From Bacillus phage vB_BspP_Dartukuta, in the sequence record MW749009.1: DNA of 60,862 bases; one strand, given 5' to 3'. Made by a program: the position numbers and the translations under genes. Under the pieces are notes generated by a model that saw only the letters and a list, made by a program, of their open reading frames with translations, did no database searches and was not told the DNA's origin. Positions 11,510-12,359 of the stretch are shown piece after piece; within the stretch, counting starts at the first letter, position 1; the number at the start of each line of letters is the position of its first letter.

Positions 11510-11565
11510 CAACTTAAAGTTGATACATTGCAAGTGAAAGTTGCAGGTATTGGTGCTGAAAGTTG
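11510..11565. promoter_or_regulatory. OL-like operator cluster (candidate repressor sites / leftward early promoter)
   Basis: Palindrome CAACTTAAAGTTG at 11510..11522, plus GAAAGTTG half-sites at 11536 and 11558 about 22 bp apart; the same core recurs between cI and cro. Confidence 0.4.
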
Positions 11566-11582
11566 TAGATTTTTTTTAAGGC

Positions 11583-11615
11583 GAAAAAAAACCCGCACAA
11601 GGCAGGCTATTTTTC
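11583..11615 (-). terminator. Intrinsic terminator downstream of the repressor gene (possibly bidirectional)
   Basis: Minus-strand RNA would form CCUGC-loop-GCGGG followed by U8 (plus-strand A8 at 11584..11591). Confidence 0.5.
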
Positions 11616-11638
11616 AATGATGGATTTGCAATATCTTG

Positions 11639-12277
11639 CTAAAAAGGCTCGTACTTACCGATTACCACGCCGGCTATATGACAGTTGCTATTGATTTGAA
11701 AAATGCGCTCTGGCCAGTCAGGGTTCAAAGCCTTCAAAAAATGGTTATCACCCTCAACTACCAGCTCTTTAAATGTTGCCTCATAGCCGCCGGTCAGCTT
11801 GGCTATTACAAGGCTTCCATGCTGAGCGGGGCGCTCAGGGTCAACAAAGATTAAATCTCCATCTTTGAATGATCTTTTGCCTCGCGGGTCGTACATCGAC
11901 TCACCGCGAACGCGAAGCACGAATGCCTTTGAGCTGTGAGTGACAGGGCAGTGTAGCCACTCTTCTGCCTCTGAAGGATCGAACACCTCAGCAATTTCCG
12001 TCCATTCGCCCGCCTGAACCCAGCTAATAAGCGGCAGCCTCCCTTTAATACTTGGACCATGCTCTACGTTCCCTGACAAATTACCCACCATTAGGTAGCT
12101 AACTGTAGTGGACAGTATCGAGGCTAGCAGTTCTAGCCGCTTACCGCGTGGCACGTTTTGCGCGCTTTCCCACTTCTGAACAGCTTGTGGGGATACGGAC
12201 AAACGTCGAGCCAGCTCTGACTGCGAGAGACCGGCAGCTTCACGGCATGCAATCAGTCGTTCGTTGAAATTCTTCAT
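11639..12277 (-). CDS. cI-type phage repressor, HTH plus S24 (LexA-like) autopeptidase domain
   Basis: N-terminal HTH LSQSELARRLSVSPQAVQKWE; Ala-Gly cleavage site in VQAGEW; catalytic GESM (Ser) and downstream Lys (FKEL). Confidence 0.85.
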   Translation of the reverse strand: MKNFNERLIACREAAGLSQSELARRLSVSPQAVQKWESAQNVPRGKRLELLASILSTTVSYLMVGNLSGNVEHGPSIKGRLPLISWVQAGEWTEIAEVFDPSEAEEWLHCPVTHSSKAFVLRVRGESMYDPRGKRSFKDGDLIFVDPERPAQHGSLVIAKLTGGYEATFKELVVEGDNHFLKALNPDWPERIFQINSNCHIAGVVIGKYEPF

Positions 12278-12288
12278 AACTCAACAAT

Positions 12289-12359
12289 ACAACCCGCAGT
12301 TGTATATGTCACTGCAATTGTAACTTGTAGTTGATTCGTCTATTCTGTAACTTTAAGTT
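12289..12359. promoter_or_regulatory. OR-like operator cluster between repressor and cro
   Basis: Three palindromic sites: ACAACccgcaGTTGT (12289..12303), AACTTgtAGTT (12322..12332), AACTTtAAGTT (12349..12359); core shared with the OL cluster. Confidence 0.45.

Follow-up and report, generated by a model that had tools for sequence, protein, structure and literature searches.

A palindrome shared by both flanks of a phage repressor gene as the candidate operator of a lambda-like immunity switch

Introduction

The immunity switches of phages lambda, P22 and 434 are the closest described counterparts of the locus analysed here, a palindromic motif on both sides of the cI-type repressor gene in the 60,862-nucleotide sequence of Bacillus phage vB_BspP_Dartukuta (MW749009.1; this whole stretch is called the window below). 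In lambda, the transcript from the promoter for repressor maintenance (PRM) is leaderless, the second right operator (OR2) abuts the −35 hexamer of PRM, and the right operators (OR) are spaced by about 24/23 bp. The antirepressor region of P22 carries Mnt, Arc and sar. The operators of 434 read ACAA-N6-TTGT, and their contacts are well established.

The locus in the window shares with lambda a divergent cI/cro gene pair with three operator positions between the genes, one of them inside PRM and one abutting the PRM −35 hexamer. Further likenesses are a cI mRNA predicted to be leaderless, a terminator with a second operator cluster (OL) behind it that would cover a leftward promoter (PL), and a homologous repressor C-terminal domain (E=1e-21). 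It differs from lambda in the operator sequence, which is CAAC-N5-GTTG rather than a 17-mer of the TATCACCGC type, in a repressor N-terminal domain of the P22/434 type, and in OR spacings of 25–33 bp. In addition, rexAB is absent between cI and OL, PL is not accompanied by an N-like protein, and the hairpin near the PL start lies ahead of a boxA-like sequence, not behind it.

P22 C2 is the best solved-structure match of the N-terminal domain, and whole-protein identity is about 41%; in the window there are also a portal of the P22 type and, as part of a second immunity region, a P22_AR antirepressor. However, the recognition helix is SNVAISQWERS in C2 and SPQAVQKWESA in the window, so operator specificity and immunity are expected to differ, and the antirepressor of the window is preceded by a C4/isrK-type antisense RNA, not by Mnt/Arc/sar. 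With 434 the locus has in common a repressor and a Cro with near-identical helices, short outer half-sites with free central bases, CAA in the half-site, and Gln31 aligned to 434 Gln29. It differs from 434 in that the half-sites are 1 bp further apart (CAA-N7-TTG versus CAA-N6-TTG) and the outermost A of ACAA is not conserved; Pro replaces Gln28, Lys replaces Gln33, and the match to the 434 repressor is weak (E=2e-4).

Because helix and operators differ from those of lambda, P22 and 434, and because DNA nearly identical to 10600..12700 was found neither in 50,697 phage records nor in all complete E. coli genomes, we take the immunity specificity to be distinct from all three. The literature yielded no description of a phage operator of CAAC-N5-GTTG sequence, nor anything of relevance on csrA together with prophage operators. 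The same DNA motif is published for PraR of Rhizobium and Azorhizobium, where SELEX gave the consensus CAAC-N5-GTTG in both species (PMC5527310). PraR is no phage repressor but a regulator of the cell, and the likeness, which concerns the DNA motif only, may be coincidental.

Results

A palindromic motif clusters on both flanks of cI

A 13-bp palindrome, CAAC-N5-GTTG, with a 17-bp form T[A/G]CAAC-N5-GTTGTA, occurs on both flanks of cI. The gap between cI and cro holds three to four copies, at 12290, 12315, 12321 and 12348; past the cI terminator there are a strong copy at 11510, a weaker copy at 11531 and a half-site at 11553. Sites were scored with a 17-bp position weight matrix (PWM) trained on sites of related loci only, with the window sites left out. 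The two regulatory genes and the putative operators are as follows.

11639..12277, minus strand: cI-type repressor gene, 212 aa, with HTH_3 (N-terminal) and Peptidase_S24 (C-terminal) domains.
12380..12577, plus strand: cro-like gene, 65 aa, with a helix-turn-helix (HTH); matches to Pfam YdaS_toxin and, more weakly, P22_Cro.
12288..12304 (core 12290..12302): OR3, TACAACCCGCAGTTGTA; centre 19 bp upstream of the cI ATG, in the PRM spacer; PWM 20.0, rank 1.
12313..12329 (core 12315..12327): OR2 in the −44 register, CAAn-N5-nTTG; weaker, abutting the PRM −35 hexamer; PWM 10.8–11.0, rank 9.
12319..12335 (core 12321..12333): OR2 in the −50 register, TAACTTGTAGTTG; overlaps the −44 site by 11 bp; PWM 15.4–15.8, rank 4.
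12346..12362 (core 12348..12360): OR1, TAACTTTAAGTTG; centre 77 bp upstream of the cI ATG, adjoining cro; PWM 18.9, rank 3.
11508..11524 (core 11510..11522): OL1, perfect palindrome CAACTTAAAGTTG; in the PL spacer, its GTTGTA arm entering the −10; PWM 19.4–19.6, rank 2.
11529..11545, minus strand: OL2, TGCAACTTTCACTTGCA; 21 bp from OL1, overlapping the PL −35; PWM 12.7–13.4, rank 8.
11551..11567, minus strand: OL3, half-site only, TACAACTTTCAGCACCA; 22 bp from OL2; PWM below 8 in the window.

A preliminary description of this DNA had placed the palindrome CAACTTAAAGTTG at 11510..11522 and three further sites between cI and cro within 12289..12359. All four are present at those places, the latter three as ACAACCCGCAGTTGT (12289..12303), AACTTGTAGTT (12322..12332) and AACTTTAAGTT (12349..12359). 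It had also named GAAAGTTG half-sites downstream of cI. The second of these is a true half-site (OL3), but the first belongs to the full, weaker site OL2 that overlaps the −35 hexamer. The sequence TGAAAGTTG occurs at 11535..11543 and 11557..11565, so that the minus strand reads CAACTTT three times at spacings of 21 and 22 bp. The middle right operator was likewise only partly as described: the site in the −50 register exists but is specific to the clade of the window, and the overlapping, weaker −44 site is the one conserved in all lineages. The two middle operators are offset by 6 bp within 12313..12335 and could not be occupied at the same time; the −50 site is the stronger.

The clustering exceeds chance expectation

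Matches to YAAC-N5-GTTG numbered 14 strand-hits in the window against 3.8 expected, a count reached by none of 100 shuffles. The preliminary description had proposed a genome-wide motif search. Over the 60.8 kb of the host replicon that were scanned, such a search found 34 sites with at most one arm mismatch, and at least two sites within 110 bp occurred solely at the two cI flanks. When the 60,846 positions of the window were ranked by PWM score, 12290, 11510, 12348 and 12321 took the top four places, with 11531 in 8th and 12315 in 9th place. At a score of at least 15, the PWM gave no hit in 472 kb of control phage loci with other repressors and 0.3 hits per window in shuffled windows.

We also counted all palindromes with 4-mer arms and spacers of 0–10 in an unbiased enumeration. 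In the noncoding DNA flanking cI, those enriched were AACT-N3-AGTT, all three window copies of which fall in this DNA, CAAC-N5-GTTG, and trivial T/A runs of the terminator. CAAC-N5-GTTG was the sole 4-mer-arm palindrome that each of the six diverged lineages examined carries upstream of cI. Over the window as a whole, the bare half-site CAACTTT shows no enrichment (12 copies against 11 expected); its meaning lies only in local clustering and conservation, and half-site counts alone are no evidence.

Sites keep their positions and arms in related loci

To compare the locus, contigs encoding related repressors (58–94% identity in protein searches) were fetched; two loci, of ~6.6 and ~5.7 kb, were read from the 152-kb metagenome-assembled genome (MAG) contig JAAYFD010000047.1. 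When genome and metagenome collections were scanned for exact copies of the conserved OR word CAAGTTACAATTGCAGTGACA, nothing came up beyond the known MAG contig and one new contig, L088, which was added to the set; the related loci carry such L numbers below.

Across nine lineages (repressor identity 58–100%), sites stand at fixed offsets from the cI ATG, namely −19, −44/−45 and/or −50, and −77. Position and arms of OR3 are invariant in the nine lineages while its central 5 bp vary, and the position of OR1 is kept in all nine. A CAAn-N5-nTTG palindrome lies at −44/−45 in nine of nine, and the −50 register is restricted to the window, L088, L086, L081 and L083. In the strongest sites, OR3 and OL1, the CAAC and GTTG(TA) arms are constant while the five central bases take three or four values per position; the centre of OL1, for example, reads TTTAA, TTTGG, CATTG, TCTGG or CTATG. 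Constant arms around a variable centre are the pattern expected of a dimeric HTH protein that contacts the outer half-sites.

The leftward cluster is conserved as a module. Past the cI terminator, relatives carry TACAAC as a half-site, T(G/A)CAAnTTTnnCTTGCA overlying a TTGCA(A) hexamer, 21 bp on a strong site of the CAAC-N5-GTTG type, and then TAnnnT. Besides the window, L081, L083, L084, L086, L088, L089 and L090 have the full OL/PL module; in L091 an OL1-type site is accompanied by a −35 region that is degenerate. A site at the 21-bp spacing of OL2 scores above threshold in L083, L084, L086, L088, L089 and L090, and the left arm of OL3, TACAACTTT, is kept in relatives 22–24 bp upstream of OL2. 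The module persists even where it is set apart from cI by 0.5–2 kb of cargo with unrelated genes (KilA-N/BstA, DUF6694, among others). The OL sites of L084, L089, L090 and L091, which were outside the PWM training, are intergenic, lie downstream of the variable cargo and score 19.4–20.1. As a negative control, we searched upstream of 15 distinct homologous repressors with 33–42% identity and other recognition helices (e.g. VNRVTVTGWESG); there were no perfect motif copies, and a single one-mismatch match was present in 2 of the 15.

L088 (1791..3251) is 95.8% identical to the window (11177..12634) over this block only, with divergence on both sides. Because the identity is confined to 11177..12634, the block running from cro through OR, cI, the terminator and OL/PL to the leader is best described, from the alignment, as a 1.46-kb mobile mosaic exchange unit with sharp boundaries, the immunity region having moved as a unit.

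Repressor and Cro share a recognition helix

The repressor matches HTH_3 (E=1.1e-12, residues 10–62) and Peptidase_S24 (E=2.8e-26) in Pfam. When its C-terminal domain was aligned to lambda cI, VQA89-G90, GES127M and FK170 lay opposite VQAG, GNSM and FKK of lambda, that is, the cleavage site and the Ser/Lys dyad; the motifs common to both are VQAG, GxSM and FK(K/E)L. Ala89-Gly90, Ser127 and Lys170, with their motifs, are invariant in 15 homologues. The best matches of the N-terminal domain in the PDB were P22 C2 (E=2.6e-6) and the 434 repressor; the recognition helices are SPQAVQKWES here, SNVAISQWER in P22 C2 and TQQSIEQLEN in 434. Within the clade the cI helix is kept as (S/T)PQ(A/S)VQ(K/A)WES.

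The divergent cI/cro pair is also present in the relatives, and Cro is 75–100% identical across the seven lineages aligned. Its recognition helix, TPQAIQK (TPQA(V/I)QK in the clade), has the same motif as SPQAVQK in cI. One reading helix in two proteins that flank one set of sites supports shared operators, as in the 434-type arrangement. The alignment to the 434 repressor pairs Gln31 with Gln29, Pro30 with Gln28 and Lys35 with Gln33. By analogy with the 434 complex, these pairings would fit the conserved CAA, the lost outermost A and the added C/G at the fourth position. We infer that cI dimers and Cro recognise the 17-bp T[A/G]CAAC-N5-GTTGTA through the helix (S/T)PQA(V/I)QK.

Promoter candidates and terminator

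The promoter candidates and the terminator around these sites are listed here.

12284..12312, minus strand: PRM-like promoter, GTGACA-17-TATTGT; the sole consensus promoter called in 10600..12700.
12318..12359, plus strand: candidate hexamers of the rightward promoter (PR), TTGTAA (12318–12323)-17-TATTCT (12341–12346) or TTGATT (12331–12336)-17-TAAGTT (12354–12359); by eye, below the scan threshold.
11504..11533, minus strand: PL-like promoter, −35 TTGCAA (11533..11528), 18-nt spacer, −10 TAATCT (11509..11504); by eye and conservation, with a predicted start near 11497.
11580..11608, minus strand: intrinsic terminator after cI from a terminator scan, 7-bp stem (11608..11590), loop and T8.

OR3 fills the PRM spacer, and the −44 site, which covers −52 to −36, abuts the PRM −35 hexamer. 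The PRM hexamers, nTGACn and TAnnnT, and their distance to the ATG are conserved in relatives. Since a distance of 7 nt separates the end of the −10 from the A of the cI ATG and a Shine–Dalgarno sequence is lacking, the cI mRNA is predicted to be leaderless, with a PRM transcript that would begin at the ATG itself. Both candidate PR pairs are overlapped by OR1 and OR2.

Two elements of PL, CTTGCA and the −10 pattern TAnnnT, are conserved in relatives. As an alternative −10 for PL we considered TGTAAT (5/6 matches, 16-nt spacer). It was rejected, as position 2 is not A and the final T does not recur in L089 and L090, whereas TAnnnT is conserved in relatives. The terminator that the preliminary description had proposed downstream of cI was found by the scan, and terminators (hairpin plus T-run) of differing sequence occupy the same place in L081, L083, L084, L086, L089 and L090.

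The leftward leader and the csrA operon

Downstream of PL, two further features open the putative leftward transcript.

11462..11494, minus strand: start of the PL transcript, a small hairpin (AACAG/CTGTT) followed by boxA-like GCTCTTTAAAA; conserved, with compensatory changes in three of five stem pairs.
10703..11160, minus strand: first genes of the leftward operon, a 78-aa open reading frame (ORF) at 10924..11160 and csrA at 10703..10876; csrA by family match for CsrA.

One or two small hairpins followed by a boxA-like G(C/T)TCTTTAAAA are found in the window (11462..11497), L081 (3854..3912), L083 (1326..1384), L084 (1820..1880), L089 (4293..4350) and L090 (5271..5326). In the window, GCTCTTTAA is the sole exact boxA-like sequence, and a second boxA-like site after cro, equivalent to nutR, was looked for and not found. 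The conserved hairpin precedes the boxA-like element. The first PL ORF has neither a family match nor an N-terminal arginine-rich motif, and no N-like protein is evident after PL. The hairpin–boxA element may be an antitermination element of nutL-like, rrn-like or put-like kind.

From PL to the first ORF there is a leader of ~340 nt; leaders of comparable length, about 290–370 nt, occur in L081, L084 and L089. The leader part at 11161..11460 (minus strand, ~300 nt) folds better than shuffled sequence (z = −2.8) and contains GCTTAG/CTAAGC repeats and several GGA motifs. Neither the leader nor the immunity region matched an Rfam family at the gathering or E-value threshold.

In L088, at 4068..4623, the PL operon has a small ORF (103 aa, no family match) followed by a divergent csrA-like gene. 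A small ORF thus stands directly ahead of a CsrA-family gene in both the window and L088, and both genes have diverged between the phages; the two may form a functional pair, for example CsrA with a partner or antagonist. A distant-mode search of 9960..11640 matched only the csrA genes of Vibrio and Pseudomonas phages, in which CsrA-like genes are annotated.

Discussion

The most probable explanation, to which we assign a probability of roughly 85%, is that the palindromes are operators through which the repressor and Cro control three early promoters, in a P22-like/lambdoid immC switch that keeps the csrA operon off in the lysogen. The lambda-like OL/OR layout suggested in the preliminary description is supported, as far as sequence can test it, by the divergent gene pair, the OR offsets, the placement of OR3 within PRM and the terminator followed by the OL cluster.

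In such a switch, the repressor would keep PR and PL off and regulate its own synthesis at PRM. OR1 and OR2 would lie over PR, from which cro and the replication genes would be transcribed, and with OR3 in the PRM spacer, excess repressor or Cro would shut off cI. The leaderless cI mRNA from PRM would stop at the terminator (11608..11580), which would keep PRM transcripts out of the PL operon. On the other flank, OL1 (spacer and −10), OL2 (over the −35) and the half-site OL3, two helical turns further, would cover PL and thereby keep its operon off in the lysogen; PL itself is predicted to transcribe the leader, the 78-aa ORF, csrA and the early-left recombination genes. Self-cleavage at Ala89-Gly90, induced by the SOS response, would release PL and PR, and Cro would then shut PRM via the same operators. 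Binding to the sites, the promoters that fire and their start points, cooperativity and the order of occupancy are predictions from the arrangement.

Several observations weigh against this interpretation in whole or in part. The OR spacings are 27/31 bp or 33/25 bp, unlike those of lambda, so that lambda-style pairwise cooperativity is not assured. PR could not be placed consistently across lineages, as neither hexamer pair is conserved in all of them (not consistently in L084 and L089). PL agrees with the sigma-70 consensus at 7 of 12 positions and was not called by the scan. On the OL side, the conservation of OL2 cannot be told apart from that of the −35 hexamer, and OL3 amounts to no more than a half-site. 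Transcription could also be attenuated ahead of csrA by leader hairpins (11249..11236 and about 11213..11186). Finally, the PWM ranking is partly circular, because the training sites in relatives were picked using the window motif; the circularity is mitigated by the unbiased palindrome count and by the OL sites outside the training, both of which are independent of how the training sites were chosen.

The alternative that deserves most attention accepts the operators as real but places csrA outside their control, with PL making only the leader or an attenuated transcript and orf78-csrA being a moron with its own weak lysogenic promoter. The leader is long and structured, with hairpins followed by short T-runs. 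The identity with L088 stops at 11177, directly ahead of orf78, which assigns the leader to the immunity module instead of the csrA cargo. Moreover, prophage-borne regulators are often expressed in lysogeny. Nevertheless, we regard this alternative as improbable. Neither strand has another consensus promoter in 8800..11600, and the leader is followed directly, on its own strand, by orf78-csrA. L088 also has a small ORF and a csrA-like gene in its PL operon, and the boxA-like leader element suggests terminator read-through. The gene order, the promoter search and the L088 pair likewise support the proposal in the preliminary description that PL drives the csrA operon; control of that operon by the repressor is the predicted consequence.

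It is also conceivable, at very low odds, that Cro or another phage HTH protein binds the sites and that the S24 repressor uses a different sequence. Cro (75–100% identity, seven lineages) is more conserved than cI (58–100%, nine lineages) and could alone explain the conservation of the sites, but cI has the PQAVQK recognition helix of Cro. Furthermore, the palindrome enumeration detected no other repeated motif common to OR and OL apart from terminator A/T runs, and OR3 in the cI promoter spacer with OL directly past the cI terminator is the classical arrangement for a repressor. Least credible of all, to a point where we give it almost no weight, is that the palindromes match by chance or belong to structural DNA, such as terminators or hairpins, and play no part in protein binding. 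Five other CAAC-N5-GTTG-type matches do lie inside window genes, as chance predicts. However, the clustering, the top four PWM ranks, the fixed offsets, the invariant arms around variable centres in diverged lineages and the zero hits in the 472 kb of controls speak against chance, and a 4-bp arm with a 5-nt loop would not give a stable hairpin. The comparative data already contradict this explanation.

The palindromes are very probably operators, and the locus an ordinary switch of the lambda/P22/434 kind with a DNA specificity undescribed for a phage; comparative sequence evidence supports this well, but it would not surprise a specialist. The comparison defines an operator code for an uncharacterised immunity group of P22-like/lambdoid prophages in gammaproteobacterial metagenomes. 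This code can be used for annotation, for predicting superinfection immunity among related prophages and for reporter design; the understanding of phage switches is unchanged by it. The position of csrA in a putatively repressor-controlled early-left operon predicts that the phage CsrA acts in lytic growth, not in lysogeny.

A more speculative proposal, which we consider doubtful, is that the small hairpins at the transcript start, boxA and the ~300-nt structured leader make up, within the immunity module, an element for processive antitermination of the rrn type or of an RNA-only (put-like) kind, and, separately, that the operator code CAAC-N5-GTTG of cI, Cro and PraR marks one widespread HTH specificity class. 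An N-like protein is absent, and the PR operon lacks a matching site. If the antitermination proposal were true, read-through of early-left terminators would differ from the N-nut system of lambda and P22.

Other features of the window

The window is a P22-like prophage with an integrase at its left end, a YqaJ/RecT recombination module, a P22-type portal, a large terminase and the P22_AR antirepressor. Its second immunity region (55302..56407, minus strand) comprises a C4 antisense RNA (56223..56310), isrK (56318..56394) and a1/b1 target sites (56354..56407) upstream of the P22_AR_N antirepressor ORF (55302..56183). P1/P7-type c4-ant control is here joined to a P22-like genome.

Within the early-left operon, a tRNA-Arg (anticodon tct) lies at 9883..9959 on the minus strand, followed by a terminator-like hairpin (9861..9844); the ~740 bp upstream of it (9960..10702) contain no convincing ORF. 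In a 534-aa ORF (5914..7518, minus strand), a YqaJ-type exonuclease domain at the N-terminus is joined to a C-terminal part that matches the T7 gp5.9 RecBCD inhibitor; the ORF adjoins a RecT-like gene (7523..8317). Near the right end of the window, a TnpB/IS605 OrfB-like gene with a Cas12f1-like TNB domain occupies 59445..60542 on the minus strand. In the late region, 42617..55228 on the plus strand is a single ORF of 4203 aa.

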